Shown here: positions 14,484-64,000 of the stretch, piece by piece
How the letters are laid out: each line of letters starts with the position of its first letter
How positions within the stretch are numbered: position 1 is the first letter of the stretch
Origin: Raja brachyura
Lineage: Eukaryota
Length of the DNA stretch: 64,000 nucleotides
Assembly (NCBI GenBank): GCA_963514005.1
Contig: OY740786.1
Coordinates: forward strand, 68,262,001-68,326,000
Direction of reading: 5' to 3'
The notes under the pieces: model-generated
Seen by the model: only the letters and a program-made list of their open reading frames with translations
Told to the model about the DNA's origin: nothing
Databases searched by the model: none
Position numbers and translations under genes: made by a program

Positions 14484-14540
14484 AAATGAGGTTTGTAGCT
14501 GACACAGATAATTCAGCTAATTCAAAAGTCCTCCTAATGA

Positions 14541-30862: not shown

Positions 30863-30896
30863 GTTTTATCTTGACCACAAGATCAGTAATTGATGC
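30863..30896 (-). CDS. Small exon of the coiled-coil gene (ASITDLVVKIK)
   Basis: TTCCCTATCAG acceptor, GTAAGT donor, phase 0 in and phase 1 out. Confidence 0.6.
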
Positions 30897-31127
30897 CTGA
30901 TAGGGAATTTTGCAAAGAAAGGTGAATCAGAAGAGGAAATAATAGATTTTTTCACATATTTCTCATTTGCACTCATAATTTTACACACATGCCACATTAT
31001 GTTCATCTGATTCAGGCTATTAGTAACTTAATGAACTGTTGGTCATTTTTAATACTTGAAACAATACATCTCAACTTATGAATTTGGGGCAATAATTATG
31101 ATTGTAAATAACCATTAGTTCCTTCCA

Positions 31128-31432
31128 TTTAGTTTAGTTTAGATTTCCAGCATGTGAAACGGTCCTTTGGCCCACACTGACCATCAATCACCCTTTCACA
31201 CTAGTTCTATGTTATCCCACTTTCCCATCCACTCCCCACACACTGGGGCAATTTACAGGGGGCAATTAACCTACAAACTCGCACATCTTTGGGATGTGGG
31301 AGGAAACCAGAGCAGCAGGAGGAAGCCCATGTCGTCACAGGGAGATTGTGCAAACAGCAGAATATGATGTCAGTATTAACCTGGGTCTCTGGTGCTCTGA
31401 GGCAGCAGCTCTATCAGTTGTGCCACTGTGCC
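31128..31432 (-). mobile_element. V-SINE (HE1-like); further copies at about 17350-17485(-), 43805-44170(-), 44590-44770(-), 50005-50275(-), 53872-54176(+) and 60168-60400(+)
   Basis: Shared V-domain core (GATGTGGGAGGAAACC..AGCA on the minus strand) and (TTTAG)n tail. Confidence 0.75.
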
Positions 31433-31645
31433 ACTTCATGCATGAAAACCACATGAACTGTTTCTCTTTGCATAACTCACCTGTATATTAAAAAAACCTA
31501 ATGAGCTACATTCATTAAGGATGCTGGAATTGATTCCTGATTAATAAAGCTAATAGAATTGATCTGTACTGATTCTGCTGTAATGTCACAATATTTCAAA
31601 TAGTTGAAGATAATGGATTCCCAAAAGGATAGATTCTACTTTTAC

Positions 31646-31757
31646 CTTTACATTTTTGTTGTATTTTTGCGCTTCAGAATTTTCAGTAATCTGTTCAGTG
31701 CCAGAGGATGTAGGTTCCACAAGCTCAGTGGAGACAGCCATAGGTTTAATGGATAAA
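31646..31757 (-). CDS. Exon of the coiled-coil gene (SLSIKPMAVSTELVEPTSSGTEQITENSEAQKYNKNVK)
   Basis: TTATTTGTGCAG acceptor, AAG|GTAAAA donor; phase 2 start matches the giant-exon donor; open frame. Confidence 0.75.
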
Positions 31758-33902
31758 CTGCACAAATAATATTAACAAATCAACATGTTAATTTATGTAC
31801 ACACAACGCACAGTAAAGTTTACAGTGCTAATAAGTCTTCTAATGCTGTGCAATCAACCACAGAATAAAAAATAGATAGTAATTTTACACCAGTATTGCA
31901 TTGTTACATTGTTGTGATTTAGTATATTGTAAACTGAGGCACTGCAAATTGTTTTTTGCAATTAATGATCTAAGTGATGATTTTTCAATTGTTTAGATTT
32001 AAACTTACATCTAATTGGAGGACCAATCTATATTACAATTCATATTTCTCAAATGATCAACATGTAAGAACATTTTTCATAGTTGCAATAATTATTGTGG
32101 GGGAAACATAATGTAGCATCTGGAGAGAATATTGAAGTTTATAATCAAAGGGAAAGATATATTTTAATGTGGACAGCTTTATATTATTTGTAGAATAGAG
32201 ATAAAAGAGCTGTAAAATTCTCAGTATGATTTTTGAAAAATAACACCATTCAAATATGTCTCCATGTTTGCAACGCATATATTATAGTGGAGATATTTTA
32301 ATTTATATATTCAAAACAATAAACTATTTAATTTAAAGTTGGCGCCACCTTCTCCTCACTTGGCAGTATTTATTACAGATTCCTCATTAATGGATAAAAA
32401 TTTATTTAACTTTCATATTAGTAACATTTTCACAAAAGATCTGCTGTATTCGAACTTGTCAGTTCCCTAGTGCAGGTCTGCTATGTGAATTATTTTGTAG
32501 TTAAAAAAGTACTAAAAATAGACATAATTTGCTGTTTTCCATAGTTTTGTCTTTCCAAGCAAGTATCCATCAAACAGAGGAATAAGAAGGAAGACCACCA
32601 ATCTTGGTGGAGGAGAAGAAGGATAATAAGGAAAAATGGGAAGGAAATATTGATTAGAATAAGACAGCAGCAAGAATGACTAGTGCACTGAACATTTACT
32701 GATTGTACTTTCACTTTCACCCTAAATTAGTTCACTGTCCCTACATTTTTTCTGAACATGTACTTGGTCACCCTGATTGGGAATCCAGGCTCTTTATTAT
32801 CTAGATGGAGGTAGATGATGATGCTAACCAACTAGCATTTGAAGACTTGCTGTGACTAAAGTCTTGTTCTGTTTTTCATGGATTGGCCCTACAGATTTTC
32901 AAAACACTTTGATAACAGGCTGGCCTACTTCCACCTGGTTTCTGCTATTGCGGCAGCCTACTTGCAGGCAAGTTAGGTTGGTCAGATGTGAACACACCCT
33001 AGGTGTCTATGTGAATGTAAACTCCTCTCCACCTTCAAAAACGTAAATGTTATCAACAACTTCTCACGGCAATCATCACAACAACTCAAAATCAGAACCA
33101 ATGGCCAATTGCAAATTCAAGTCCCGGAGGCATAATTCACCTTGATAACCAACAGACTGCTTATGTGTAATTGTTCTTTGTCCCAGGAGTTCCTTCCAGT
33201 GTAAGGTGTGTTTTTATTAGCCAGAGAGTATACATGTTGGAGAATAATCTCAAGATGTGGCCAGTCATTTAGAATTGAAATGAGGAGAAATATCTTCCTG
33301 GAAATTGTTGGAATTCTCTTTCTCCAAGATCCATGGATGCCTGCTTGTTAAGTACATTCAATGTTATGGTTAATGGGGTTTTGGACATTCAGGGAAATTT
33401 TGGATAAGGGGATTGGGTACTAAACTGGACTTGAAGCACAGAATCAGCCGTGAACCATGAATGAAGGCACAAGTCGAGAGGCATACATATTTAAAATCTT
33501 ACATATTTTTCTTATTCTCTTATGTGCTTGTAGTTTAATTAAATTATAGAGGATGCAATCTCAATTAGGGCTGAACCATGAATCATGCTGATGGTGTGTC
33601 CCTATCTCACTCTTCCTCATGTTCAAAGGTCTTAGGTGTCACCTCCATTTAATTTTATTAATTAGGTGCCATGCTTCACCTGTCCTTGGTTTTTGACTGT
33701 TTTAACCTTACTCTTTAAAAAATAGATGTAGGAAGTAACTGCAGATGCTGGTTTATACCCAAGATAGACACAAAATGCTAGAGTAACTCAGCGGATCAGG
33801 CTAATTCGAACCATAAATAGGAATAAACCCTGTATTCACAACCAGGTGAAATATACAGATAATCAGGCTTGACGAGAGACAAATAGCATCTTTAATTTCT
33901 AC

Positions 33903-36900
33903 CTCTGATCAATGTAATCTTTATCCGTAAGTTCATCCTCCCAAAGTTTGGTCTCTTGATGATCGAGAGTTGCTTTGACCAATTCTTTGTCTTCTTGATG
34001 ATTTAGAGTGATCCTATTTTGCTCCTGCACCCTCTTTGACAATGGTACGGATTTTGCCTGTTGACAGGTGCCCTTAATGTATATAATTGGAGACTCAATG
34101 GCACAAACTGATGTTGTTCTTTCAGTATCAGCAATTTTTTCTATTCCTGTGTATTGTTGCTTGGGATCTCCAGCTAGCAATGTGCCTTGCCCTCTCATAA
34201 TATTTCCTATTTCTGGATATCCCATACTGTTTGTTGATTCAGATGTTTCCTGCAGCCATGTATTCCTTACTTCAGATTCAGTACAATTTTGAAAGTCACA
34301 CTTACAGTTAGTTTTAAGATTGTAGTCCTCATCGGCTACATTTAAATGTGCACAAGTTGAAAAAGTGTTCTTCTCCTTGGCTTGTTGATTTCTGTCTTGG
34401 AAATTAATTATTAATTTATTTATTGTTTCACTTTCTGTATTATTTCTCTTAGTTTTATAGATACTTAGTTGGTTTTCTGAAATTGGACCTGGACAAAATG
34501 TGGACACTTCTGGAGTACTTATTTCTCCCGCTAGGTTCCCAAGAGCCATAACTACCAATTCTGTCTCTTGCATTGTCCATTTCAAGTCTTCCTCATTCTC
34601 TGGTTGAAAGTGAATTTTAGTTGAGGTCAAATGTTCTTCTGTGGGCTCACTATCTATTAATTTAGCTTTTTTATCTACTAAACTTTCATTTTGTGAATGA
34701 TGACTTTCTGGTGGGTTTTTCATAACATTTTGTTGGTAACTGTTCTCAGAGGAAGGATCCATAGTCTGCGAATGTTCCAGTAATGCAAAACTAAAATTGT
34801 GCTCTTCTAATATTTTATCATGCAAATTACCAGTGGTTTTCACAAACATTATTCTACCATTTTCAGTGTTATCAATGGTTTGGTGCGATCTCGTTTCACT
34901 GTTTTGAAGTTCATCACCTGTTTCAAGAACGTGGTTCATAACTGCAGGAAGCATTGTATCCTTGTCTACTTCAGTAAGAGCTGCAAGGAAATTCATCATA
35001 GTGTTCTCAGATCCTGTTAATTTGTTTGGTGGGTCAGCAGCTTGAGATGAACTCCCTTGCTTTACTTTGTAACTGCAGCATGCCTCATCTATTTTCATTC
35101 CATCATTTAGCTCAGTGATTTTAATCTTTAACAGTTTTTTTTCTTGCTCAAGATTATCAATTGAAACTTGAAATCTTGAGATGTCATTCAACAATTCAGC
35201 GATCATATCATGGCAATTATTATTCTGATTTCCTAATATCTTGCTTTTGTTTTTTAGATAAACTGTCAAGTTATTGCAGGCATGTTGCTCAGCATCTATC
35301 CTTCCTTTGTGGTGAGTCACATTTAATTCAAGCATTTTTTTCTCTCTGTCAGTCTTTTCCATGGCCTTTTGTATGTTTTCATTACTGTTCTGTGATTCCT
35401 TGACTGACTCTAGATGTTGAATGTTTTGTAAATTTAAGATTTTGCTTTTATTCTTTTCTTTCAACGGCTGAACATATGATTCCAAGTCTTTTCTGCTGTC
35501 TGGGTGAATTTTAGGATGTTTTCCAGAGAAATCTGGGTTTATTAAGTTACACCGAAGGTGCACAGGTTCCATTGATACTGTACTGCTCACCTGACTTTCT
35601 GAACTATAAATGTTACTGATCTGACTCCTTTCTGTGGACTGATTAAGAATCTCCAGAAATTTTGAGCTGTCACATGTCAGAGCATTCAGCTTTTCCTGAA
35701 GTCGTTCTATTTTTTCATCAACTTCCTTTAAATCATTTGTGAGATTAGCACTTGTCCTGCAGTACATTTGCTGATTTCTGAGTAGAATTTTAAACTTTAA
35801 TAGAGACTCTTTTTCTAATTTATACTTCTCGATCAATTTATGTTGTCTTCTTGTCTCTTCCAGTGTTTTCGCGTCATCTTGTACTTCAATAGTTTCACAC
35901 ACTTCTTCTGGCTCAGAAATGTTAGCTTCATGTTCATTGAAATAGTGTTGCATTTTAAGATCACAGTCCATTTCATCTTCTGTGAGCTGTAGCAACATTT
36001 TATCTACATCAACAGATAAAGTCATGTTTCCATCCAATAGATCATCGGCCATATTTTCTAACTGGCATTTTTGCTTTTCAATTATCTGGATTTCATATTT
36101 GATGAGTCTTTGCATTTCACAGGCATTTTTCTGTTCCAGAGAAAGACAATTCTCTTTCTCAATCAGACTAGTTTCTAACAATTTCTTCTCATGTTTGTGT
36201 TTTTTAATAGACATTTCTAATTCTTCATTCTTAGTCTGGAGATCTTTAACTTTGTTTTGAAGTTGATTATTTTCTGCATCAGATTTCTCCTTCTGTACCT
36301 CCATTTGAACAGCAGGTCTGCTACAATCAAAATCATCTAATGATGCATTTCCCCCCAATTCATTAACAATGTTATCCAATGCATTTTCATGATCGAAAAG
36401 TCGTGTGTTTTCATTTTCCACAGGATCAATAATTATTGGAATATCTTTGGAAAAGTTATTCATCATTTGTGACTCACTTTTATGGACCTGTTGTTGCAAT
36501 TCCGTCAGGTTTAGTTTCAGTTCACAAACTTCAACTGTCAGCCAGTATTTTTCTTCCATAAGATTCTCAATGTATGCCGTAAGTTCTTTGTTATACTCCA
36601 TCAGTTCATTGGGCATTTTCTGCATCTGAAATTTTTCAGAGACATCTAATGTTGATGGAATAGATATATCTGATCTTTCACTTCCCAAGTGATATAACAC
36701 CTTATCAGTAAGTGGTATATTTAATACAAGATCTGGTATATTTAATACAAGGTTTACAAGATCTGTCGTTGTCTCTGCATTTTCAACAGCAATATGCACC
36801 TCACAATCTTTATCGGACTTGTCCATCAGTTCCTCTAGTAAGGCCTCAGGGCAATTTTTCCCATCATTATTTATTGCCTTCTCTTCAATTTGACGGACTT

Positions 36901-39499
36901 CCTCATCAAAGAATAGATTTTCCTCTGTTAGTTTTGGCTTTTGCTTGTTCCTTGTATTCTCAGGAAGATCTGGAACTCCTTCAAATTCCTCCATGCTTCT
37001 TGTGAGTTTGATGTTATTTTTTTGCACTGTTTTACTTTTCTTGTACAATCTACTGTTGGAAGACTCTGCATGCAACTGGTCAACCTGCTGACTCTTTGTA
37101 TTTAACTTCTCTGATTTTAAATTGGATTGCAGTTCAGATACTGTAGTTTGTAGGTGAACTTTCTCTTGGACAAGTATCTCAACTATTTCTTTAAGATTTG
37201 TATTTTCCGCAACCATTTCTGATAACACACCTTGTAGATGTTCAATATGTTTGATATATATCTTCCACTGCCAGTTTAATTTGACTTCTTTTTCACTAAA
37301 TTGTACCTGTTCCTCTCTGAGAATATTTTTTAAAGCAGCAAGTTGGACACCCAATACTTCATTACGTCCCAGAGTCCAATTAATTGTATTTTCAAGTTCC
37401 AGATTATTACTCAAAAGTTCTATTATTAATTTTTGCAATTTTTTATTTTCAGAATAAGCTGTGTGTTGTTGACCCTTGATTTGAGCTTCAATTTCATTTG
37501 TGAAGGATATTTCATTGACTAGGTTTTTATCAAGTTCAGATATCTTTTGTTGCAGGGGTGCTTTCTCATATTCTTGGTTCTCAAGTGAATATTTATGCTC
37601 CTTCAGCTGCTGAACAATTTCTTGAAGGGTGCCCACTTCTGAATTTAACAAGCCATCCTTATGTAACTGCATCTTAAGCTCAAGATCAAAAATTGAAGCC
37701 TGAAGATGTCTGGTTTCGATCCCAATTTTCTCAATGGAGACCACAATGTCTTTGCTAATCTTTATAACTTTAAGGATCATATGAAAAAGAGAGCTTTCTG
37801 TGGAGGCTGTTAACCTTGTAAATGGTGATTCTAACATGGTCTCGAGCTCTGAAATACTGACCATTCCATCTTGATAATGTTTCTTGTCCTGACAGATCAC
37901 TGGACTACATTGGTTTTGTGCTTCTCTGATGCCTGACATATAAATGTTGTCTTGCAATTCCAAAACATTTAAGCTAAACTGATGGCTATTATTTTGTAGT
38001 TCAGTTACTAACTGGTGAAGAGAAGTGATTCTTCTCTGTAGTTTCAAAATGTTACCTCGAGACTCCAAAATATGTTCCTGCTGTTCAGAGATGGTTACCT
38101 GAAGTTTCTCCTTGATTGCAGCAGTGATGGCTAATATATCTATCACTGTCTGCAGCTCTGCTTCAAACTGGTATTTATTCCCACTCACTTCTGCAATTGT
38201 AGTTTGGGGTCTTGTATATCCGTGTAACTCTACTGCAGTTTTCTGACGATGATTTATATTTTGCTGCACTTGCAAAAGATATTCTTCCAAAGAGTTATTT
38301 TTCTCTGCAAGTACGATGATTTTGACGTTTAATTCTGCATTCCTTCCAAGGAGTTCTTGGGCAAGACATCGTAGCCGTTTGTTTTGTAAGTCAGCACCCT
38401 CTAACATTAATGCTTTACTTTGTAGTTCTGAAATCATTGTTAACAGTTTGTTTTTATAGCTTTGAAGGCCACAATAATTTTTTTGTAGATTAATATTTTC
38501 ACCTTCAAGCTTGATGATAGCGTTTGTATATTCACTACTTTTGTCCTGAAGATCGAATATCTTGTATTGGAGCTTTTGACTGTCAAATTTACTAGCCTCA
38601 AGCTGAAAAACCTTTGCATTTAATGTTGATAGGGAGCTTTCAAGCCAGCTCTTATTTTTGCAAAGCTCTGACATTTTGTCCTGCAGCTTCCAGTTCTCAT
38701 GCCGCAGGTTTAAGTAATTTTCTGTCATATGTTGCAGCTCTGAAAATGCACCACATTGCACATTGTGGGGAATAGCTGCCTGCAGTTTGGCAATATTTCT
38801 TTGTAGGCCTGATGCCAAATCCTCAAATTGGCATTTTTTCTCATAAAGTTCTGAGATGATGGTTTGCACTTTTTTATTTCCTTGCTGTAATTTTTCAACA
38901 ACAGCCTGAAACTGACCAATATGTTCCTGTATTTGTGAATGTAATGTTCCTTGGCAGCTTTGTTTTTTATCTAAGTCCATGATCATAGTTTTCAGCTGAT
39001 TATTTTGTTCATATAGTTTTAAGATCCTGAGATGAAGTTCCTCATCTTCAGTTCCTGCCTTTTCACAAAGCTTGTCCCTCACAGATTCATCAGCGGGCCG
39101 AACATTGCCCTGCGGTTCCATAATAATAGAGTTAATTTGCAAATGCAATTCAGAAATCATGGAATGTAGTTTGCTGTTTTCTTCTTTTATCTCATCTATT
39201 GCAGTTTTTATATTGATAATTGATTCCTGCACTTTGGCCACTTGGCTCCAATTCTTGTAATTCTTTTCAGTCAGATCTGCAACCGTAGATTGCAATTTTG
39301 CAATCTTTTCTTGAAACTGCAGATGCTGCACATTCTTAGAATTGCAATTGTGCAGTTCAGCATCTCTATCCACATTCGTTGGAGAAAACTGATCCTTTAC
39401 ACACTGAAACTCTTCAACAGCTGTCTGCAAGTGTTCACTTTTCCGGTGTACTTCAGATATTTCTGCCTGCATTGTGTTTGTCCTCAGATGATCTTGGAG
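33903..39499 (-). CDS. Giant 5,597-nt coding exon of a large coiled-coil protein (possible CEP85-family gene)
   Basis: Over 1,860 codons open and TE-free in a TE-dense region; L/E/Q/K/N-rich heptad-like sequence. TCCATTTAG acceptor at 39500, AG|GTAGAA donor at 33902, phase 0 in and phase 2 out. Confidence 0.88.
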
Positions 39500-41734
39500 C
39501 TAAATGGACAATAATATAAAATAACAAGGTTTGTGAATAAGATGGCACACAGAATAACATTCACATTGATGACTCCTAAGTAATCAAGGCCATCCTCTTC
39601 GGCATGCTTTGTGGCACCAATAGTTACATTAACAATAACTGGGATTTAGACACAAAGTGCTGGAATAATTCAGTGAGTGAGGCAGCATCTCTGGAGAGCA
39701 TGGGTAGGTGACGTTTTGGGTTGGCACCCTTCTTCAGACAGATTATGGGAAAGGGGAGGAGATGGAGGGAGAAGAAAGCCAGGAAAGAGGAGAGGCAGGA
39801 CAAAGCACGGCAGGTGATAGGTGAAAGCAGGCAAGGGGGGTTTTGATAGGCAGATGAACGGAACAAAGACCAGATATTAAAACAGGTGTGAGACAAAAAC
39901 GATTGATGACTTGTGAATTATAAAGCCAGAGGAAGGAATGTGGGTGGAGGGGCAGTGGTGAAATAAGTGCGAGTTCAGGTGGGGCATGGGGGGAGGTGTA
40001 TGTGTGTGTGTTTGGGGGGGGGGGGGGGGGGGAGGTAGAGGGAAGGAAAGGGTAGAGGTTGTTAGAGGTTAACCAGCATCTGCAGTTTCTTGTTTCTACA
40101 AGAATTGGAATTTACCTGACTTCCATCCTCACCCCTTCCTGAGCCCCGAATCTCCTTTTGTTTATGTGTTTTATCACTTTACTAGTCCAGTTTTAGTCAA
40201 TCTGAAACTTCAATTGTGCCCGTTATATCCACAAGTTCCGTTTAAGTTCCACAAAACTGTTGAGTTTTTCCAGCAATTTCCAAATTTCTCCAGAAACTAC
40301 AGTTTTTTATTTTACTTCTAAATTCTTCAATGACCCAAACTTATAAGAGACTTAAGGGACCTGCTTGCCATGATTATTTCCTGCTGACCAAATTATTTCA
40401 TGAATTGCATTTAAATTCTACAGCTGCTGAGATGGATTTGAATTTGGCATCTGGATTGTTCACCCAGGCTTTTGACTATTAGTCCAGTAATTTAGCTATT
40501 ATGCTACCATTCTCATGTTTATTATTTTACTTCCACCCTTTAATAAACGTGGTTTTGAAAATCCAATGTTCCAATTTGACAATTTCTTGCCAAACCTGGC
40601 AGACTTGAATTGTGATGGTGGAAACCTACGCTATCTATAAATGACTTCAATCAGCTGACACATAGGATCCAGGCTGCTATCATCAGATCATTAAATCCTT
40701 CCCTACATTCCATGTGAGCCATCAAATTCTTGGCTATAAACAAGTGCTGAGCTGGAATAGAATTTTAAATGGTCATAATTTCTTGATCCGGCCGTTTAAA
40801 TCCAAATAGCATTCAGTCCAGCAGGCTGCCTCGTGTTCATGCTGGAGGAACACAGCAGGTCAGGCAGCATCTGTGGAGGGAACGGACAGACAGTTTTCAG
40901 GTCGAGACACTAACTCCACAGACTCTGCATGACTGGCTGAGTTCCTACCAGCACTTTGTGTTTTGCTCAAGATTCCAGTACCTGCAGTTCCTTGTATTTT
41001 GATTGTGTTCAGTATACTCAGTTCAAATAAAAACTTGCTAACCAACATGAACCAAAGTAGACTCAACCATCAGTGAGTGATTTATGAGTGCTTGATTGAC
41101 GTAGGTGTGCTCATAATGTGAAGAAAGGATTTACAGAGTTTGTTGCAGCTGCTAGAAAGCACTTTCCAAAAGCACCATTAACTATTTAAAAGGTAGAGAG
41201 GAATGCTGGAGAAACTCAGCGGGTGAGGCAGCATCTATGGAGCGAAGGAATAGGCGTCGTTGCGGGTCGAGATCCTTCTTCTGATGTCGGGGGGGGGGGG
41301 GGGAGGGGGGGAAAGGAAGGGAAGAGGCGGAAAAAGTAGGCTTGTGGGAGAGCTGGGAAGGGGAGGGGAAGCAGGAAGAAAGCAAGGACTACCTGAAATT
41401 GGAGAATATCATTGGGGCTGTCAAGTGTCAAGTGGGCACCTCCCTTCACTGGTGTTTCATTGAATTAGGCTCACAACACCTCGAGTAGGCTTAACAGTTA
41501 GTTCTGGCATCCCAGAACCATCCCCCCTCAATACCTGCTCTCACCACCTATGCTACCAGTATGCAGTAAGTCAGTAACCCAGTAAGCAGCTAACTATGTA
41601 AATTTCTACTAAGTGACATTAAGTCTATAGTTTTCAAATCTTGAATATACTCCCAGTGCTCTATTCTGTCCCAGTTTTACTAGTTGACCCGTTTTGAAAT
41701 GTCTTTGAATATATGTATTTGGCCCCTTACTCAC

Positions 41735-41822
41735 CAATGGTGTGTTGGTTCTCTGCAGTGTATTATACAGTTGAACGTCATGTTCCTGGGCTTTCCATTG
41801 TTGCCTCTGCTCATGCTTCTGC
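41735..41822 (-). CDS. Exon of the coiled-coil gene (R|QKHEQRQQWKAQEHDVQLYNTLQRTNTPL)
   Basis: TTCTTACTGTTTAG acceptor, TTG|GTGAGT donor; phase 2 in and phase 0 out links the neighbouring exons exactly. Confidence 0.8.
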
Positions 41823-44170
41823 CTAAACAGTAAGAACATTCCATTTCTGATGAAAGGTCATTGATCTGAAATGCTTATTCCATTTCTCTCTCCATGAATG
41901 CTGCCTAACCTATAGAGTATTTTCAGTATTTTGTGTTTTTATTTCAGACTTCCAACATGGAGCAGATTATCACTTTTAGAAGAAAAGTTCACATATGTCT
42001 TAATTAAATCTATTATACTTATTTAAGGTAGTGCATTGATTATACCCACATCAGAAATAGCAAGTAAGACGACTGATCTTCTCCCTTAGAATTTGGTTGA
42101 TGGGATAGGTATTATGTGGATTTGTTTTTCTGGATGGTGCTAAGCTTCTTCAGAGTTGATAAAACAACATCAATCCAGACAAACGGAAAGTATTCCTTTG
42201 CAATCTAGATTTGTGTCTTAAAGATGGTGGTAGGGCACTGTGGCGTTAGGAAGTGTGTATCCTCTGGCCTGCCCTTCTAGCCACCAAATATATAGGGATG
42301 GTGCACTTAAGTTTCTGTTCAATGTTAAGCTAATATATTGAGGAAGGGAAACCTAGTGATTTATAATGTAATCAAAAATCTACAGATGCTAGACGTCAAA
42401 AATAAAAATAGAATGTTGAAAATACTTAGCACGTTAGGCTGCATATGTGGGAAGAGAAACATCCTCAACCTGAAATGTTAACTCTGTTTCTCTTCCCACA
42501 GATGCAACCTCACCTGTCAAATATTTCCAGCATTTTCAGTTTTTATTGACAATGAAAATGCCATTTAAGTCCAGGGAAGGTGGTTCGGCTTTCTCTTGTT
42601 AGAGATCATCTTTGGTTAGCACTTTTGTGGCACAAATGGTACTTGCTGCTTCTCAGCCTATGACTGTATTTTGTTTTGGTCTTGCAGCATAAGGCACAGA
42701 CTGCTTCATTTGGTGAGGAGTTGTGAATGGAATAGAACCGAGTAATAATCCACAAATATCCATCTTTCTCACCTCTTATTTGGCTGTTGGATTACTTCTC
42801 TTTGATGTAAAGGACCCGGAATTAAAGTTCCTTTTGTGGACTTTGATGCAAAATTCAAGATGTTATTTAGATTCTGTCCCTAAAGGTGAAAGTGCCATTT
42901 TTTCAACACGATGTTAAACTATCATTATTCAGAGATATGCAATCTGGGTCCCCCAACAGCCTGCCAATATTTATACTTCAAACAACATCATCCAAAAACA
43001 AATTACTTTTTAATCTATATTCACTTAGGTGGCACAATGGTGCAGCGGTAGAGTTGCTGTCTTACTATTTCCTATTTCCACGCTGCAGCTCTAAAACTAA
43101 AACAATTGTGATTAACAGGACAACTTCACTTTTTACAGTCAAATTTCCAACCAGAATTAGCATCCTGATATAAAGATTTAATTGATCCTCATTCCGATGA
43201 TATGTTCATGATTAATGAAGTTTTGCGACCCGGTAAAGGGATATGGGTTCTCTGTATTCAACATCTTTAACAACAGATGTTTATTCAACCTGAATAAACA
43301 ACCTTAAACAACCAGATGTTTATTTTTTTGGTTGTTATGCTTGAATTGGTGTCCATTTAAAAAAAAAAAACATGTCCTGCTATTAGCATTGGTAAACTGA
43401 GGATTGGAAACAGGGAAGGTTCATTATCATTAAGTTAAAATACATTTGCCTCCATCCCAATCATACTTGACTGATTATACTTGTACTTGGTAAATCCTTG
43501 CATCCTTTTACAAAAGCTGGCTCAATATCTTTACTTTCAACTGTATCTTCGATTTACCATTATAATATCTTTATTTGTATCCATCTATCCCTGAGCTTAG
43601 ATACTGTTTGGAGATATTTGCTGAATGCACAAAGTCCACATAAACATGCGATGATAAATTAGATAATTTGCAAAAGTCTGGAAGTGCTATTTAAGTTCGG
43701 TTTCAAGCCTACCTAGATTGTGTTTATCAAGAGTGTTTATGTAGTGCATTTCATGGTTAAATTGTTTTGCAGTTAGAGGTACATATGAAGTGTTTCCACT
43801 GTTATAGTTTAGTTTAGTTTTAGAGATACAGCATGGAAACAGATCCTTCAGCCCATCGGGTCCATGCCGACCAGTGATCACTCGTGCACCAGTTCTATCC
43901 TACAAACTAGGGACAATTTACAGAAGCCAATTAACCTACCAACCTGCATGTCTTTGGAATATGGGAGGAAACGAGAGCACCCAGAGAAAACCCACGCGGT
44001 CACAAGGAGAACATACAAAATCTTCAGGCAACACCTGCAGTCAGGTATGATCTGGGTCTCTGGTGCTGTAACGCAGCAACTCTATCTTCCATACACTAGT
44101 CACCCATACACTAATTCTATCCTACAAACTAGGGACTACTTACAGAAGCCAATTAACCTATAAACCCACA

Positions 44171-44526
44171 TGTAGGAGCTATTTAGGTTTAGGCTAGCTA
44201 CTGTTGGCATATTATATTATTTTGTCTAGATATTTCTAGCGGTATTATTTTGAACACTTGGGGGCGGGCACTTGATGCATAGTAGGGCGTTACATATAGC
44301 GTAGCCACATGGAGTGACCAGATCAGACCAGGCACGGGAGCAAGAGTACACATTTCTTACCAGATGGGAGAGAACGGAAAGTAACAGCTTGTATGAGAAT
44401 AAGGAGTACCTGGTATGAATCATCTCTTTGTTTGTACAACTACTTCAATAAAGAATCAATTAAACTCGAAATAACGACTGGAAGATCCATTCTTTTCTAA
44501 TCTGCATAAGATCACTTCTACCTACC
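44171..44526 (+). mobile_element. Possible solo LTR next to a SINE
   Basis: Starts TGTAGGAG, has AATAAA at about 44447 and ends in an imperfect inverse (CTTCTACC/CCTACC). No clear TSD. Confidence 0.35.
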
Positions 44527-45336
44527 TGTGTAGTAATGGCAACGGAAAGTTGGACATTGAAAATGAAAGAAATTACCATTACATCTCATGTATTTGGAAT
44601 GTGGGAGAAACCGAAGCACCCAGAGGAAACTCACGAGATCACATCAGATCATACAAACATATGAGGGAGAACATACAAGCTCCATACAGATGGTACCCAA
44701 GAGCAGGATCCAACCCAGGCCTCTGGAGCTGTAAACCAACAACCCTACCACTGTGCCACTGTACCACCCCCATAGTCTTCATATGGGGCAGAATTGGGAA
44801 GCTTTAATTCTTTTGTGGATTTGCTACCATTTTGGACTGTATTTTCTTTATTGTTGGTTTTTCCAATACTTTTAATTGCACAGTTTTTATGTTGTCATTA
44901 CATCCCAAAAGAGTGCCCATTTATGGCTGAGTAGATAAAAAAATAATTTTTACTTTGAGTATAGTCTATTGTCACATGTACCTAGGTACAGTGAAAAGCT
45001 TTTGTTGTGTGCTCACCAGTCAGCGGAAAGACGATACCTGATTATAATTGAGCCATCCACAGTGTACAGATATATTATAAAAGGAATAATGTAATAACGT
45101 TTAGTGTAAGATAAAGCCAGTAATTTGCAAAGTCCTACGGCATGAAACAACTGAATGTATGATTGGTGACGGGAGAAGGTCTTACTGTCTCCCAAATAAA
45201 TCATTTCATGATTGCTTTAAAGCAGAGTGCACTGGCCACTGTTATATAATGTCAGCAATAATATATTCAGAATTTGATACATCTGCCTATGAGGTCAACT
45301 ACATCTGCAGAGTCAAGTATCCAGTTACTGAAATCA

Positions 45337-45812
45337 AGTGAGGGTTTTGCAGGGATGAGTTAACCAGGGAGTTGCAGAGGGAACAGTCTCTGCGGAAGGT
45401 GGAGAGGGGTGGTGATGGGAAGATGTGACTCCATTCCCATCCAAACCACCCCCTCCCATATTTCGCTTGGGCAGCTTACAGCACAGTGGTATGAATATTG
45501 ATTTCTCTAACTTCAAGTAACCCCTGCATTCCCTCGCTCTCCATTCCTCCCCCACCCAAGTCACACCTAGTAAACAATGACCGTTTCCTTTATCATATTT
45601 ACTTTTTTGCATATATTTAATTCATTTGTTCTATATCTCTCTACATCACCGTCTATGTCTCTTGTTTCCCTTTCCCCCGACTCTGAGTCTGAAGGGCCTC
45701 GACCCGAATGTCACCCATTCCTTCTCTCCAGAGATGCTGCCTGTCTCGCTGAGTTACCCCAGCATTTTGTGTTTATCTTCGGTTTAAACCAGCATCTGCA
45801 GTTCCTTCCTAC
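45337..45812. mobile_element. Penelope-like element fragment with an inverted 5' segment
   Basis: Minus strand gives HIFPSPPLSTFRRDCSLCNSLV (PLE linker). Plus strand 45458-45520 gives IFRLGSLQHSGMNIDFSNFK* (GIY-YIG C-terminus), followed by the repeat with a degraded hammerhead core at about 45686-45716. Confidence 0.85.
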
Positions 45813-46314
45813 ACTTAACAACCAGGTTCAGTCGACAACTCTACTGCTGAGCTGCCCCATGTTTTAGAAATGCACTACCAAAATATCCTATGTGTATTAT
45901 TTTTAACGTGTGCAAATTATATATCAAAGAGATATAATTAGTAATCATATTCAAACAGATTAAAAACACAATTTAATTGTGCCCCATTGTAAAGAAGTTG
46001 ATATAAAGTGAATTGAGAATGTTAATAAATTAAGGTGAAATATCTGATTTATGTTATCCCTGTATTTTGTGATATCAATATTAATGCTTTTAAATTTCAA
46101 AGTATTGGACTTTATCAGATTTCAATGTTATATCCTGCACTAAATGTTGTACCCTTTATCCTTTATCTGTGCACTGTGAATGGCTTGATTATATTCATGT
46201 ATAGTCTTTTCTTTGACTGAATAGTACGCATGCAAAAGCTTTTCACTGTAATTTCATACATGTGACAATAATAATAAAACTGAACTAAACTAAACGTAGA
46301 AAAAATGTTCTTAC

Positions 46315-46409
46315 CTATTCAAGAGGATCTTCAGCTCTTGAATTTCAGTCTCATTTTCTTGAAGTAGCTTGATATGCTTGTCACTGTGTTTCCATTGCAC
46401 AGTTTCAAT
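46315..46409 (-). CDS. Exon of the coiled-coil gene (IETVQWKHSDKHIKLLQENETEIQELKILLN-R)
   Basis: TTTCATCACAG acceptor, AG|GTAAG donor; only one frame is open; phase 2 end matches the 41822 exon. Confidence 0.78.
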
Positions 46410-48699
46410 CTGTGATGAAACATATGGTCTAATAAAATTGTTCCTCTTTCATATTCTTTGTCTTTATATTAAGTTCATTGTCCTTATTGTAGCTCACTGA
46501 CCTACATAGGGGTTTTGTTCTGCAAGAATCTGATTTCAATGTAAACATTCATAAAATGTTGGGGTCTTTGGCAAGACTAACATTTAATGCCTCATTGGCA
46601 TTAATCCAAATGGCTTTCAATACCATTTAAAGATGACTGCATTGAAAGTGAATCTTGAATTACCTGTATCTAAAGCCCATAATGTGTTGCAAATTTCCTT
46701 CCCTAAGGAATTTGGTGATCAAATGGGATTTTTCAATAACCCTACTGTTCCCTGGAGACTATTACTGATACCAAGGGCTAGAAATTGCATGACTACATTT
46801 TATTTACATTGAGACAATATGTCACCTTAATGCTTTTGCAAGGATTGCACTAAATCTTCTATCGTGAATGCAGTCTGAAGAATGGTCCTGACCTGAACCG
46901 TGACCTATCCACGTGTAGGAGGGAACTACTGATGCTGATAATACGGAGATAGACACAAAATGCTGGAGTAACTCAGCGGGCCAGGCAGCAACTCAGGAGA
47001 AAAGGGATAGGTGATGTTTTGGGTCGGGACCCTTCTTCAGACTGAAAGGTAGAGGTTGGTGGGGGGGTGGGGGGGGGGGTGCTTTCAGCCTGAAGAAGGA
47101 TCCTGACCCAAAATGTCAGCAATCCATTTTCTCTAGATGCTGCCTGAATCGCTGTGTTCCTCCGGTACGTTGGGTCTTTATTTTCCTATTTGTGTTTTTG
47201 CGGAAATGAAATGAGGGGCTGAGTGGCCTACAAGGACATTGTACATTTTCTGGGTTATTGCTTTTCTTCCTCCTCCCATGGATGGAGCTTAGCCAAAGTG
47301 CGTGGCTGAGAGCAGGTCTGGAAGCTCCAGCTAAGCTGCAAGAGAGCTGGCAGAACAGACGTGACAGGAACTTAATGCCAGCCTTGCTGTCCAATTTTCT
47401 GTCACCCTATTCAAAATTACTGAGGTATGGACAAAATCAGTACATTAGCACAGGGGGTTCTAAATATGATTTCATATATTTAGAGTGATGGCTTGGGAGA
47501 GGTTGATCTCTGGCATTTATATGTATACCTTACTTAGAAACAGAAATGAGAGTGAACACTGACAGTTCCAGGTGTGGAGTCTGCATTCCCATTCAGAAAA
47601 TTTGACCCCAGTCTTACAGAATTTCCCTTACGTTTAAGAAGTGAGCTTCATGGATGTTGATAAAGAAATTCACGGCAACAGGGCACCCTATTCATCAAAG
47701 AACACAGGTTGTAGAGAGATTTGCAAAATAAAACTATCATGATTATCGGATAGACTACCTTAAGCTTTTTTGTATATTATCTTCTGACACAACAATAGCA
47801 GGTAACAAGGAGGAACTACATCAGTATTGCTTTTAGCAGAATATGTGCTGCTAAGCAGTAATGTCAAGGGCAATGTAACTTCAGATGGTAAAGTATAACA
47901 GTAATATTACACTTGTGGATTTTGAAGTATGATGGAAACAGTTTACTGTTCCTGACCAACTGTTGTCTTGAAAGGTTTCATGTCAGAGCAAATGTCTAGT
48001 CTTGCATGCTTCCATCAAAATGTATAAATAGCTTAATCTCTCAGATGTAAATATGTAAGGAATGAGACCATCTGAAAGATGAGAAGATGGTCAGTGCAAG
48101 CACTTAGGAGAAGCACCAAGAGTAAAAATAGAACATGTTTAATTACTCAAACTCCCAAAAAAATGGATAAGCAAAGAATAAATTAGAAGAAAATTCTAAT
48201 TTCAAGTTTTTAATTTCAAGTTTTCTTTCTATTCCAGCCCTTCAGTACGTTACGTGCAAAATCTAAAACTTAAATGGTTGCAGTAATTGTATCAAGATTT
48301 GAACATCTGCCAAGCTTGCTATATTTAACAAAGATGCATCTTAACACATGTTGCCAAATTATACTTTAGTTTCCTTCTGAAAATGGTTCCAGGCCTATTG
48401 CCTTACTTGCAGTTATTGAAAGCTGGAGCTCTCAATCAGTCCTTCAAAAGTTATTTATGTCGGTTACATGGATTATAGAACATTGTCACTGTTTTTTCTT
48501 AAAACTGAGCCTATCATAATCCCTGCACTAAATCTGAATGAAACACATTCTGTTGATTATTTTGAAAGCTTGTCAAAACGATTTGTTTTTCAAAGGAGAA
48601 ATTAAGGAATGTGTGCATACATTTTGTTTAGGCAATGTATGCTCTTTCCCGTTGTGAAACTGGGTTCCTCAAAGTTGATGCTGAACTTGGAAAAGTATA

Positions 48700-52786: not shown

Positions 52787-53088
52787 AGGGCCTGTCCAAC
52801 TTGGCCATCATTTGCGCGTCACGAAGATGGCGCGCAAAGATTTTGTACATCACAAAATACATTTACGCGTCAGGACGCACATGATGCGCGCATGGTGCGC
52901 ATTACGCGCGCATGGTGCGTGGTGACAGGCAGTGACGCGCGGTCGCGCGTGGCGTGCAACCGCGTGTCACTGCCTGTCACCACGCACCATGTCCGCGTAA
53001 TGCGCACCTGCGCACATCATGTGCGTCTTGACACGTAAATGATGTCGGGTAAATTACGCGCAAATGACGGCCAAGCGGGACAGGCCCT
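52787..53088. mobile_element. PIF/Harbinger-type (Tourist-like) fold-back MITE
   Basis: TIRs AGGGCCTGTCC..CTTGGCC.TCATTTGCGCGT, TAA TSD (52784-52786 and 53089-53091), almost entirely self-complementary. Confidence 0.85.
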
Positions 53089-53245: not shown

Positions 53246-53403
53246 TGTAAATTATATGGACTTGAAGCTTGTATTAATTCTACCATTCGGTGATTTACGC
53301 AACTTAAGGTTTGGACTGATGGCAGATGCCTTCTGTCTAAACCTTAGTTGTGTAAATCACTGAATGGTAGAGCTATTACGTGCTGCAAGTCCATATAATT
53401 ACA
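53246..53403. repeat. 158-bp imperfect palindrome/hairpin of unknown origin
   Basis: ~77-nt arms TGTAAATTATATGGACTTG...GGCA / TGCC...CAAGTCCATATAATTACA with a minimal loop. Confidence 0.85.
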
Positions 53404-56530: not shown

Positions 56531-57057
56531 GTTTGTAAGACTTGAATTTACTCTTGAACTTCTGCAGCTGTCTGGCTGAGAGCAGCCTTGTTCGGCAACT
56601 TAAATGTCCAGGAATCAAGAAGATTACAAAAAGTGGTGGACATCACCCGGTCCCTCATTGCACTCCTACCATTGGGAGTAAGGTATATGAGTCTAAAAAA
56701 CACAACCACCAGGTTCAAGAATAGCTTCTTCCCAACAACAATCAGTCTTTTGAAAACTACAGAATACTAACCTCAATTATGAACTATGGACTGGCTGTCT
56801 TTGGTTGCACTAAGACATCTGGCTTTTTTGCACTAGTATTGGGATTATTAATTCATTGAATTGTCTCGACCCGAAATGTCACCCATTCCTTCTCTCCAGA
56901 GTTGCTGCCTGTCCCGCTGAGTTACTCCAGCATTTTGTGTTTATCTATTTGTATAGTGTTTGCAGGCTGTTATGCTGCTCCAAGTAAGAATTTAATTGTT
57001 TTGTTTATGACAATTAAACACTCATGACTTGACTCTTGACATGACCTGCCCCACGTA

Positions 57058-58697
57058 TAGTACCTGCCATAATGTTTGGGACAAAGACCCATCATTTATT
57101 TATTTGCCTCTGTACTCCACAATTTGAGATTTGTAATAGAAAAAAACCACATGTGCTTAAAGTGCACATTGTCAGATTTTAATAAAGGCCATTTTTATAC
57201 ATTTTAGTTTCACCATGTAGAAATTGCAGCTGTGTTTATACATAGTCCCCCCATTTCAGGACACCATAATGTTGGGGACACATGGCTTCACAGGCGTTTG
57301 TAATTGCTCAGGTGTGTTTAATTGCCTCCTTAATGCAGGTATAAGAGAGCTCTCAACACCCAGTCTTTCCATCACCTGTGGAAACTTTTATTGCTGTTTA
57401 TCAACATGAGGATCAAAGTTGTGCCAATGAAAGTCAAAGAAGCTGTTATGAGACTGGGAAACAAGAATAAAACTGTTGGAGACATCAGCCAAACCTTAGG
57501 CTTACCAAAATCAACTGTTTGGAACATCATTAAGAAGAAAGAGAGCACTGGGGACCTTACTAATCGCAGATGGACTGGCAGGCCAAGGAAGATCTCCACA
57601 GCCAATAACAGAAGAATTCTCTCTTTTATAAAGAAAACTCCCTCAAACACCTGTCCGACAGATCAGAAGCACTCTTCAGGAGTCAGGTGTGGATTTGACA
57701 ATGACCACTGTCCACAGACGACTACATACACAGAAATACAGAGGCTACACTGCAAGATGCAAACCACTGGTTAGCCGCAAAAATAGGATGGCCAGGTTAC
57801 AGTTTGCTAAAAAGAACTTAACAGGGCAACCACAGTTCTGGAACAAGATCTCGTGGACAGAAGAGACGAAGATTAACTTCTATCAGAGTGATGGCAAGAA
57901 CAAAGTATGGAGGAGAGAGGGAACTGCCCAAGATCCAAAGCATACCACCTCATCTTTGAAACACGGTGGTGGAGGTGTTATGGCCTGGGCATGTATGACT
58001 GCTGAAGGTACTGGCTCACTTATCTTCATTGATGACACAACTGCTGATGGTTGTAACATAATGAATTCTGAAGCGTATAGACACATCCTATCTGCTCAAG
58101 TTCTAACAAATGCCCCAAAACCCATTGACCGGTGGTTCATTCTACAGCAAGACAATTATCCAAAACATACTGCTGAAGCAACAAAAGAGTTTTTCAAAGC
58201 TAAAAAATTGTCAATTCTTGAGTGGTCAAGTATATCACCCAATCTGAACACAATTGAGCATACCTTTTGTATGCTGAAGAGAAAACTGTAAGGGATTGGC
58301 CCACAAAACAAGCATAAGCTAAAGATGGCTGCAGTACAGGCCTGGCAGAGCATCGCCAGAGAAGACACCCAGCAACTGGTGATGTCCATGAATTGCAGAC
58401 TTCACGCAGTCATTGCATGCAAAGGATATGCAACAAAATACTAAACATGACTACTTTCATTTACATGACATTGCTGTGTCCCAAACATTATGGTGCCCTG
58501 AAATGGGGAGACTATGTATAAACACTGCTGTAATTTCTACATGGTGAAATCAAAATGTATAAAAAGGCCTTTATTAAAATCTGACAATGTGCACTTTAAC
58601 CACATGTGATTTATTCTATTACAAATCTCAAATTGTAGAGTACAGATGCAAATAAAGAAATAATGGGTCTTTGTCCCAAACATTATGGTGGGCACTG
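57058..58697 (+). mobile_element. Tc1-family DNA transposon, full length (1.64 kb), with long IR/DR TIRs
   Basis: TA flanks; ~220-bp TIRs (CAGTGCCCACCATAATGTTTGGGACAAAGACCC, intact at the right end); inner direct repeat CCATAATGTT.GGGACA at about 57265 and 58475-58492. Confidence 0.95.
57406..58444 (+). pseudogene. Tc1 transposase, frameshifted with a damaged catalytic triad
   Basis: HTH and GRPRK in 57391-57774; WTEETK (D to E), KHGGGGVMAW, QQDNYPKH and SPNLNTIEH in 57689-58291. Confidence 0.9.
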
Positions 58698-59590
58698 TAA
58701 AATCATAGATAGACACAAAATGATGGAGTAACTCAGCGGAACAGGCAGCATCTCTGGTATGGGCGACGTTTCGGGTCTAGACCTTTCTTCAGATATAAAA
58801 TCTTTGGTTTTAACCAGCATCTGCAGTTCCTTCCTTCACATAAAATCATGTTGACTGCCCCATTTTAGTCCATTCTCTTCCAAATGTGAGTAAATCTTAT
58901 CGCTAAGAATCCTCTCCGATAGCTTCCCGACCATGGATGCTCTGTAATTTTCTGAGTTATCCACATTTCCTTTCACGCGGTAGCCATGCTGCACACAAAA
59001 TCTTCCAAAAATATATATTTTTATTGAATAGTGCTGTAAAACATGCTCTGGAGCCACAATCTGAAATTACCCTACTTCAATTTGACCTAGTGCAGGACAT
59101 AAAATTGGAACCCCCATCTTTTTATCACCCAAACAATAGCAGCCTTGCTACTGAAGGCTTATCATGCATCCAGGAGGTCCAAATTTGTGTGCAGCTATCA
59201 CCATTTCTAGTAGGTGAAACCAAGTGGTGTCTATAGCGCTATCAACATTTATGGATCAAATCATGAGGCAGTGTTTGTTGACCGAGGTCTCAGCTTCTAT
59301 TGCAGCGCAAGTAAAATATATTCAAATGGTGCAGTGGAGGTCCAGACATTTGCTTTGTGAAATCAGCTTTGTTCTATTAAAGCTCAGACTGCTGAGATCA
59401 CAAATCTATACCACTGCACAAAACAAGCATTGTGGATATCACAGCAATCCACCTGTCTCTGGTATAGCTAGGGAACAACCAGGTGACTGGTAATTTATTT
59501 GTGGAACACACATCCAACATCCTTTCTTGGTTGTCATCATTTATAATTCCACCAGTGTCCACGCATGTAAGTGCCTATCAACTAGTCCCA

Positions 59591-60620: not shown

Positions 60621-63541
60621 CATGCATTTCTCTTTGAAAGCTACCTTTATTTGGTGCACACCACACAAAATACTGTCCTCCTGGAGCAAGTAATACCTTG
60701 ATTAGCCTTGGCCACACATTGCTAATCATGTTGATTAGCAGGCAATGCAACACTCAGACCCTAACACCATTAGAAATAACAGGTGCAAATCAATTTCACG
60801 TTGATATCAGGGGGCATATTTTTGGGGACTATTGCATTTAAAAGTTGTGTTTGTCAATCTTAGTTTTAAGATTTCAGACCAGTTATATGAAGGATAAAAC
60901 TCACACATGATCCTTAACCTTTGGAAAACTTAAAACTCTTTTAAAATTATGTTTTAATAGTTAGTAATTTTTATTATGTACATTATTGAAAAATGTATCT
61001 GAATTAATATATATTTTAATTTTCTGTTCCATTTTCTGCTTTGACTATTTAGTGATACAGACTCTTTATTAAAGTTAAAAGCACCATGTATATATTTGAA
61101 CAACAATTATGCAGAGAACTACCAATCCTATGGACCCATCCCACTGAGTGACATGTCTTACTTGTGACATCATTGCTTTTATTGCCAGAAAGTTGGTGCT
61201 CTCCTTTCTCCTAGACTACTTAGATCCCACACGGAGATTCTCTGCCCAGACAGCACTTGAAGACACACAGCGAGAGAACCTGTGGCCAGGAGAGGCATTA
61301 ATATCTGCAAAATTTAGATAATTTGTTCAAAAAGGTAAAGAATGAAGTGCATGTTTGTGAAGTAATATGTCAAATGGCAGGAAATTTCTTTACAGGCTTT
61401 TCAAATGTGTGCATTTGTTTTTGAATTATTTAAACGTAGCAAATGTACAATAATTATTAGACAGCTGTTTCATTTATTGGAATAAATATAATCACCATGT
61501 ATCAGACAAAGATTCAAATATTATTTTGTTTGGGATTTCTGAGCTTCCTACCATTAGCTTTCGGATATTATCTTTCAAGAACTAAAGTTAGGAGTCAAAC
61601 TTCTAAATTCACTCATTATATCAATACGTAACGTGACATTATTTTTTGTCAACATCTTGCAATTCTGGATGTGTGGTTCTTTGCCATTTACTATTTATTA
61701 ATAACAGTGAATATTATCCATAACATTACAGATTCATTTTATATCCTCGCCATAGCTGGTGTATTTTTATGTATTTCCTTTGAACCAAATGTTTTTGTCA
61801 TTTTAAATAATGTTGGATTAATTTGTTTTAAAAAATTCACCAATATCATGGAGAGAATTAGATTTTGCCAATTCAAAAATCAGACAATTTTAGTCCTTAA
61901 ATATCTAAGAACATTTAATATTCAAAGATCGAACTTTGTTCCAAAATAATTAAGGCTTTTCCACAGAAAAAAAATATATACAGGTTTTCCGTGCTTCGAT
62001 GCTTTAAAAACATTTAATGCTTTAAATATGTGGCTTAATGGAACAAATATTTCATGTCACTTGCATTCAAATACCCCATCTGAATAAAAGTGTGCTTGAA
62101 GCATTAAATATACTTACTTTCTTGAGTTGACAGTAATCCTAGCCATAAATAGTAAATATGTCTGCGTAATCTCAAATAGAAAATAAATCATTATTAATAT
62201 CTTACTATTTGTTATAGCTCCTTTTCTTATTTTAATTTGCAAACGGATACTAGGATTTTGAATGACCAAAATAAGCTCTGAAGTAATAAAGCTGATGAGT
62301 TAGATTATATCAATTAGTGTTAGCATCAAGCCTATTTTTAGACCATGGATTTAAAGTTGGTCTGATATCCATCTCTCCAAAACATTTGCTGTCGGCAATG
62401 GTGTTCGTAACAAGCTTAAATCTAGCTTCTTTGTAAACTGATAGTCAACCACTTTAAAGTTACAGAGCACAGTCCAAAAATACAGTATAGAGACTAAACT
62501 ATCAAAATTGATTGTAATCATGTATATTGTGCGTGGCTATGTAAGAAAATACTCCAGTGCAACAGTTATGCAGTTAGTTTGTCACTATTAAGAATTAAGT
62601 TTCAGGGCTGTAAATATAACTGAAGAAACAGTTTGACCCCAGGCTTCTGTACTGTCAGTTGATGACCGTTACTAAAATATCGCTGTTAGGTTACAAATAT
62701 AATAAATATAGCACACTTCAGTTCTTTCAATTTCCAGGTAACTAACTGCAGTAAAGATACAATATTTTATTTTTTGGCATATGTTTGAGCTTACCAGGGA
62801 GTACACAGGGTTCCTTACACTCAGTTTATTTGGAAATTTGATGAGCAGTGCCAGGTTTTACATAAAGCAATTCAGAAGCAGAGCTAACTTCTATGTTACA
62901 TGTAGTTAATAGCATTCTAGCAATATGCCTCGGATCCAACGTCTGAAGATCAACCAAAGCTTTAACTATTTTTTTTTTCCTTTTCAACACTACTGATCCT
63001 GAGAACTGCTGATTAAGAATTTAAATTTGACGGCCAACTATGAGCAATTTTACGCTGTGGCTGCACTTAATCTGTGGATGTTATCCAAGGTCACTTCAGA
63101 CAGGATTCCTGGAACCAACTGAGAAATGTGAGAGTGCCACTTCATTGGCTTGGGTGAATCAGGTCCCACAAATGAAAAAGAAACGTGCTTGCTTACACAT
63201 TATGCTTTACAGTCAACTACAATTAACATTTTCAACATTAGAACACATTCTATTACGTAGGACAGGTCAGGAGATATGTTTTCAATGGCATTTTGCTTCT
63301 TTTTAACATGGCAACTGTTGAAACCTAACTTTCGCAATTTAATAATTAATGTTTCTACTAGAATGCTCTAGAGATAACAAACGAGAAAGATCTGTGCAAT
63401 CTTTATTTCAGAAAACCTAACGGTATAAGGCGTGTGGCGGAGTAAAGTTCAGCTGCTGTTGTTCTGAAGTGTTGGCTCATCGGAAGTGATCTGTTACCGT
63501 GGAACTGGTTGTGTCATCCTGCTCCCTTAGCCGCTGCAGCC

Positions 63542-63637
63542 ATGGATAAATCCACACAAGAGCTCTTCTTGAACTTTATGGTGGTTTTGATGACCGTGCT
63601 ACTTATGTGGCTACTTGTTAAGTCCTATCAGGAGTGA
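63542..63637 (+). CDS. SLN: Sarcolipin, SERCA-regulating micropeptide (31 aa)
   Basis: [31 protein letters not shown]: canonical length, STQELFxNF start, hydrophobic TM segment ending MWLLV and (R/K)SYQ tail. Strong Kozak GCAGCCATGG; upstream acceptor-like TCTTTATTTCAG ending at 63411. Confidence 0.97.
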
Positions 63638-63669
63638 GGCACTGTCTTCAATGTAAAACCAGCTTTTAC

Positions 63670-63675
63670 AATAAA
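63670..63675 (+). promoter_or_regulatory. Candidate proximal polyadenylation signal of SLN
   Basis: AATAAA 33 nt after the stop, followed by GT-rich TTGTGGGAGTTTGTC; could be incidental. Confidence 0.35.
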
Positions 63676-64000
63676 TTGTGGGAGTTTGTCATGGCTCTGC
63701 TCCTCTTTTACCATCCAGTGGCTGCCGTCAGATAATTTAACCTGGGCAATCACTTGCTTGAATTCTGGTTTATTTTCCACATTTCATCTTTTGCCTGATG
63801 CTCTATTTTTACCCCCTGAAATGTATCTGAAAGGGCATGTGTCACCCCTTCATGATTTAGGAGCACAATTGTGAAGTATGAAATTCCCAGTCATGAACAA
63901 AGTCCCTCCACAGTATCAGCTTTGTAGCTCTATGCACAACTACAATGGTTGTGTATCATGGGCGACAATTTAATATATTCTCACCATTTGTGAATCTGCA

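Follow-up and report, generated by a model that had tools for sequence, protein, structure and literature searches.

The 31-residue open reading frame (ORF) at positions 63542 to 63637 on the forward strand of the window, by which we mean the whole 64-kb stretch of DNA analysed here, raises a question that reaches beyond this locus: do sarcolipins (SLN) with a KSYQE luminal tail inhibit or uncouple SERCA, and is SLN-based muscle heat a mammalian invention? Inhibition and uncoupling by KSYQE sarcolipins have already been posed as a question (PMC6011225; PMC6170647; PMC5684175), and the KSYQE/Q tail of birds is debated with opposite conclusions (PMC5684175 vs PMC6170647). That SLN takes part in the heat production of birds and fishes has been described as unproved (PMC9300183), and a comparison of 131 vertebrate SLNs is cited in PMC7711957. 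Sarcolipin comprises a transmembrane helix from residue 7 to 26 plus a luminal tail (residues 27-31), and it occupies the M2/M6/M9 groove of SERCA with contacts between Asn11 and Thr805 and between Tyr29 and Phe88; the tail positions the helix, and its removal abolishes inhibition (PMC8396278). Deletion of Tyr31 is reported to have a slight effect and deletion of residues 29-31 a larger one, with uncoupling abolished by deletion of residues 5-7 (PMC8626070). PMC6011225 states that Arg27 and Tyr31 occur in mammals only, other vertebrates having Lys27 and Glu31 or Asp31, and relays, citing Gorski 2013, the proposal that these two mammalian residues are essential for inhibition. The same source gives Phe9 as the ancestral state and reports Ser4 and/or Thr5 from fish to mammals, calling their phosphorylation ancient and conserved. 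Nothing on shark SLN appears in the accessible portions of PMC5585156 and PMC6430904, and our searches of the open-access literature showed no functional test of a KSYQE or an elasmobranch SLN.

The ORF runs uninterrupted from an ATG through 30 further sense codons to a TGA, and the opposite strand of the same interval is broken by a stop. Its translation matches the Pfam Sarcolipin family (PF05366) at 67.1 bits (cut-off 26.4, E 1e-18) over profile positions 1-30 of 31. The sarcolipin chains 1JDM and 3W5A/4H1W are the two best of six PDB sequences (E 4.6e-10 and 7.4e-10), the four phospholamban sequences reaching only E 0.5-1.1. A homologue search gave 34/34 candidates including the query peptide itself, and each of the other 33/33 has the PF05366 domain and goes by the name sarcolipin or sarcolipin-like. 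The layout is likewise that of sarcolipin, with about 31 residues, a short cytoplasmic N-terminus, one transmembrane helix and a short luminal tail, and not the phospholamban type of about 52 residues with a cytoplasmic phosphorylation domain. At the level of sequence, Asn11, Glu7 and the phospho-acceptor residues Ser4/Thr5 are all present; the luminal tail is KSYQE and not the mammalian-type RSYQY. Among 390 small ATG ORFs of the window this one is the most hydrophobic, yet its lead is narrow (2.61 against 2.58 for the next), and hydrophobicity by itself is insufficient to single it out. No second sarcolipin or regulin copy was found among 2126 six-frame segments of the window searched with the profile of our sarcolipin alignment (A1), the next best segment having E 0.27; as that profile includes the query, it is circular for the ORF match, but it does bear on whether a second copy is absent. 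Judged from its sequence, the ORF is the sarcolipin of a skate-like elasmobranch, intact, ordinary and present as a single copy in the window. The features of the gene are as follows.

63542-63637, forward strand: sarcolipin coding sequence, 31 amino acids plus TGA (translation, Pfam, PDB, homologues).
63542-63562, forward strand: predicted cytoplasmic N-terminus, residues 1-7, with Asp2, Ser4, Thr5, Gln6 and Glu7 (translation; roles inferred from mammalian work, PMC6011225 and PMC8626070).
63563-63619, forward strand: predicted transmembrane helix, residues 8-26, with Phe9, Asn11 and Met17 (best 19-residue hydropathy window, from residue 8, mean 2.61).
63620-63634, forward strand: predicted luminal tail KSYQE, residues 27-31 (translation and alignment).
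63397-63541, forward strand: predicted 3' splice sites and start context (AG ending at 63411, 63530 or 63539).
61332-61340, forward strand: AG/GTR candidate donor of a speculative non-coding first exon (one of three sites).
63670-63675, forward strand: AATAAA, predicted polyadenylation hexamer, the sole canonical one from the stop codon to where the window ends.

These results bear out much of the preliminary description, which had recognised the ORF as a sarcolipin rather than another regulin: Pfam, PDB and all named relatives agree. Thr5, Asn11, Phe9 in place of Cys9 and the KSYQE ending all read in the translation as it had claimed. A cartilaginous-fish origin also holds, as the nearest peptides all come from sharks and rays and the gene beside the ORF shows 91% identity with a skate protein. 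The ORF had been called hidden, which is true insofar as it is real and was missed by the ORF track, but it is not hidden from databases: the identical 31 residues are present in NCBI and in NCBI nr, on 7 contigs. The peptide is thus already databased, and every feature that had been flagged is already described in print.

The surroundings of the ORF are compatible with a gene whose coding sequence lies in a single exon, an arrangement of non-coding exon 1 and coding exon 2 having been described for horse SLN (PMC6430904). Pyrimidines make up 10, 12 and 10 of the 14 bases preceding the candidate acceptors at 63411, 63530 and 63539, respectively; none is followed by an ATG before the start at 63542, which has G at both -3 and +4. 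A scan of 60650-63560 for the AG/GTR pattern gave three candidate donor sites (GT at 60783, 61335 and 62738). In the 9 kb upstream, three different kinds among the MEF2, CArG, E-box, TATA and MCAT motifs never fell together within 300 bases, a result uninformative as to a muscle promoter. Of 22 sequencing runs listed, 20 contain part of 63400-64000; none is recorded as RNA and 14 of them are guessed to be RNA (share of words 0.36-0.69), which speaks neither for expression nor against it. The window ends 363 bases past the stop codon.

Several database entries present sarcolipin as a longer protein. The "long sarcolipins" P0035, P0095, P0039, P0048 and others consist of the 31-residue ORF plus its flanks, with TGA read as Trp. 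P0035 and P0095 (170 and 180 amino acids) are the SLN of a close relative treated in this way, and they are collinear with window positions 63467-64000 without a splice joint; over 178 codons the flanks of the two genomes align free of gaps at 94%. We considered a longer protein or stop read-through on the strength of these two entries and rejected it because the window has stops at the corresponding places and the same pattern recurs in the fish entries P0039 and P0048. Entries of this type are likely gene-caller artefacts. A different composite, P0082, is a predicted fusion of an SLC35F piece with a mammalian-type sarcolipin, which suggests that SLC35F and SLN are neighbours in that genome, the fusion itself probably being a gene-model or read-through artefact. 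A tblastn search of the window with the 66-residue SLC35F piece, allowing E values up to 1, gave no match, a weak test of mammalian-type synteny.

The neighbouring gene lies about 17 kb upstream of SLN and points away from it.

26768-46424, reverse strand: gene in five blocks encoding some 2000 amino acids, coiled-coil-like by eye.
Blocks at about 46424-46305, 41836-41681, 39499-33875, 31759-31616 and 26887-26768, all on the reverse strand.

Its main exon (33875-39499, reverse strand) spans about 5.6 kb and 1866 codons, and shows 91% identity with a protein of Amblyraja radiata, 86% with that of another skate, 54% with that of a stingray and 41-58% with those of sharks. These identities suggest a rajid skate as the source of the window. 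All 6 homologues found among the best 7996 candidates are elasmobranch (6/6), and no Pfam family scores above cut-off. The automatic names of these homologues are inconsistent ('kinesin-related protein 4-like', 'kbtbd3 isoform X2' without a BTB or kelch match, 'uncharacterized'). This gene, which is less understood than the sarcolipin ORF, may be specific to cartilaginous fishes, and the data are consistent with its linkage to SLN in the batoids Amblyraja radiata and Hemitrygon akajei, where the longest contig recorded for either gene has one and the same length (104,925,409 and 202,954,487, respectively). The majority of the remaining long ORFs resemble relics of transposons, with a Tc1-type transposase recognised by Pfam and reverse-transcriptase-like frames by eye. 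The following elements were noted.

57056-58699 (approximate): Tc1-type DNA transposon with terminal inverted repeats (pieces 88-93% complementary) and a transposase split over two frames.
12329-15829, reverse strand: successive frames that resemble, by eye, a DIRS-type retrotransposon in decay (with reverse transcriptase, RNase H and tyrosine recombinase).
52894-53008: near-perfect hairpin, 56-nt arms, 91% complementary, 3-nt gap, CpG-rich; probably a miniature inverted-repeat element.
53250-53400: near-perfect hairpin, 62-nt arms, 82% complementary; probably a miniature inverted-repeat element.

Comparison with other sarcolipins places the peptide within a highly uniform group. The elasmobranch sequences in NCBI, from the batoids Leucoraja erinacea, Amblyraja radiata, Hypanus sabinus, Hemitrygon akajei and Pristis pectinata and from the sharks Carcharodon carcharias/Chiloscyllium punctatum, Stegostoma tigrinum/Rhincodon typus and Cetorhinus maximus, have a 31-residue core like that of the skate peptide, the basking-shark (Cetorhinus maximus) entry bearing two extra N-terminal residues. 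All 8/8 share Thr5, Phe9, Asn11 and KSYQE with it; seven differ by one residue and one by two, the substitutions seen being K3R, L24M, M17I, Q6K, D2N and D2S. The sarcolipins of birds, reptiles, amphibians and holosteans (e.g. P0016) have the same KSYQE, Phe9 and Asn11 but differ by 3-7 substitutions, always with Ile17 and not Met17 and sometimes with Ser, Ala or Val for Thr5. Mammalian sarcolipin (1JDM; 3W5A/4H1W with SERCA1a) shares length, topology, Thr5, Glu7, Asn11, Trp23 and Ser28-Tyr29-Gln30, and the skate peptide differs from it in having Lys27 for Arg27, Glu31 for Tyr31, Met13 for Thr13 and Met17 for Ile17. At position 9 the skate peptide has Phe, as does the 1JDM chain, and not the Cys of the 3W5A chain. 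Phospholamban (PF04272) has a homologous transmembrane helix, in which its Asn34 matches sarcolipin Asn11 (PMC8396278), and is set apart by its long cytoplasmic phosphorylation domain, which the skate peptide lacks, and by the luminal tail that the skate peptide possesses.

The 33 relatives in alignment A1 were grouped by the names of their sources, and counts within it refer to non-mammals only, as the word-based search gave no mammal. On that basis KSYQE is found in 8/8 elasmobranch, 11/11 non-mammalian tetrapod, 2/2 holostean and 1/12 teleost relatives, the other teleosts having Asp31 variants. Glu7, Asn11, Trp23 and Lys27 are invariant in the alignment, with Phe9, Asn11 and Lys27 in 34/34 rows; Ser4 is present in 33/34 (one row is partial) and Thr5 in 20/34, including 8/8 elasmobranch relatives. 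The sole residue enriched in elasmobranchs is Met17 (63590-63592), found in 7/8 elasmobranch and 0/25 bony-vertebrate relatives, and by its sequence this is a conservative change within the helix. An unfiltered homologue search added mammalian-type sequences and gave 49 representatives, of which 48 were tallied for tail and position 9. Thr13, Arg27 and Tyr31 occur together in 11/49, Tyr31 never appears without the other two, and the two Tyr31 representatives checked by name are rodents. Among the 11 RSYQY-ending sequences (48 tallied), 8 have Phe9 and 3 have Cys9, and with 1JDM also carrying Phe9 this residue is evidently common in the mammalian type too. The distribution over groups makes it likely, by parsimony, that KSYQE is ancestral and RSYQY a mammalian derivation, with a change in net charge of the luminal tail from neutral to +1.

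Arg27 was also seen in the catfishes Ameiurus melas, Silurus asotus and Silurus meridionalis and in the bonefish Albula goreensis (P0038, P0042, P0047 and P0060), as well as in the unnamed P0045 and P0049. In this sample, then, Arg27 is not confined to mammals, contrary to the published detail, and of the two residues Tyr31 marks mammals better. The catfish and bonefish sequences are natural intermediates with which the roles of Arg27 and Tyr31 could be separated.

Parts of the preliminary description need to be modified in the light of these comparisons. It had set KSYQE against the mammalian RSYQY, whose terminal tyrosines contribute to SERCA inhibition; the tail does differ, but only Arg27 and Tyr31 are changed and Tyr29 is retained. 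Nor do the comparisons support this copy being specially informative through its tail or Phe9, since KSYQE is the general non-mammalian tail and Phe9 is widespread. It had further held a cartilaginous-fish SLN to be informative for the evolution of muscle Ca2+ handling and thermogenic uncoupling; the sequences do not follow endothermy. White sharks are lamnids; bamboo sharks and skates are ectotherms. One and the same peptide (P0004) is common to the white shark Carcharodon carcharias and the bamboo shark Chiloscyllium punctatum, and another (P0016) is common to chicken, pigeon and a cluster represented by Xenopus. The core of the basking-shark entry (P0002) is the same as the white and bamboo shark peptide. 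Lamnid sharks are regional endotherms (PMC9300183), and given the peptides shared by white and bamboo shark and by chicken and frog, the sarcolipin coding sequence bears no mark of endothermy. Any role of SLN in the regional endothermy of sharks would have to come from its expression or from SERCA.

By analogy with the SLN of mammals, an mRNA of muscle and atria would be spliced and then translated into a tail-anchored peptide of the SR/ER, whose helix would sit in the M2/M6/M9 groove of SERCA with Asn11 touching M6 and Tyr29 touching M2. There the peptide would reduce the apparent Ca2+ affinity or turnover of the pump, an effect that phosphorylation of Ser4/Thr5 would relieve; S-acylation at position 9 would not be possible. 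Its job would most likely be the tuning of Ca2+ re-uptake and relaxation, and not heat production. We consider it highly probable that this is an ordinary skate-like sarcolipin which binds and inhibits SERCA, possibly more weakly than the mammalian form; binding and inhibition are expected because Glu7, Asn11, Tyr29 and Gln30 are retained and only Tyr31 and Arg27 differ. Taken at face value, the published claims for Arg27 and Tyr31 and for tail removal (PMC6011225; PMC8396278) mean that a KSYQE peptide may inhibit poorly.

The most serious competitor is a true sarcolipin whose KSYQE form does bind SERCA but neither inhibits nor uncouples it to any appreciable degree; strong inhibition or slippage would then have arisen in mammals together with Tyr31 (and Arg27 and Thr13). 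Binding without inhibition has been argued for non-mammalian SLN (PMC6011225; PMC5684175), and it fits both the restriction of Tyr31 to the 11/49 representatives that also have Thr13 and Arg27 and the neutral charge of a tail that carries +1 in mammals. Against it stand the retention of Tyr29, Asn11 and Glu7, the slight effect of Tyr31 deletion (PMC8626070) and the occurrence of Arg27 outside mammals (three catfishes, one bonefish); a peptide that hardly varies between skates and birds, moreover, implies a strongly selected function, and a non-mammalian SLN may suit its own SERCA (PMC6170647). On balance we regard it as improbable. A second alternative, that the peptide helps the muscles of cartilaginous fishes to generate heat in a regulated way, like that proposed for mammals and opah, draws on the acidic residues at positions 2 and 7, which have been proposed to drive uncoupling (PMC6011225; PMC6170647), and on an SLN:SERCA ratio said to be higher in the red muscle of opah, cited second-hand in PMC7499911. 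That source also reports that SLN is not upregulated in warm tuna muscle, and the lamnid white shark has the same peptide as the ectothermic bamboo shark. Skates themselves are ectothermic, and such a role is very improbable here; it is possible for it to be set by expression level.

That the ORF could be another, phospholamban-like regulin, a retrogene or pseudogene that is silent, or a hydrophobic frame arisen by chance might be argued from its intronless coding sequence and from a weak match to phospholamban (PF04272, E 0.0036). This match is confined to the transmembrane part and scores 17.2 bits, below the cut-off of 25, and a weak cross-match of the same kind occurs in all 34/34 rows of alignment A1, which marks it as a trait of the sarcolipin family. 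The reading frame is unbroken and scarcely varies, there are candidate splice acceptors a short way upstream, the flanks are collinear with those of a close relative over the 178 codons mentioned above, and none of the 2126 segments holds a second copy, all of which makes this explanation scarcely credible.

A broader reading, which joins several of these strands, takes the elasmobranch peptide to be near the ancestral jawed-vertebrate SLN and to bind SERCA without strong inhibition or uncoupling, so that slippage heat would be a mammalian gain arising from Tyr31 (with Thr13) and not from Arg27; the electric organ of a skate, being derived from muscle, might also have silenced the gene or put it to another use. 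As a whole we hold this reading to be unlikely, and prefer that of an ordinary sarcolipin. If it were true, its weak-inhibition part would hold for all non-mammalian sarcolipins and not for this locus alone. The locus itself therefore matters little to the question with which we began, which a chicken or frog SLN with the same tail would test equally well.
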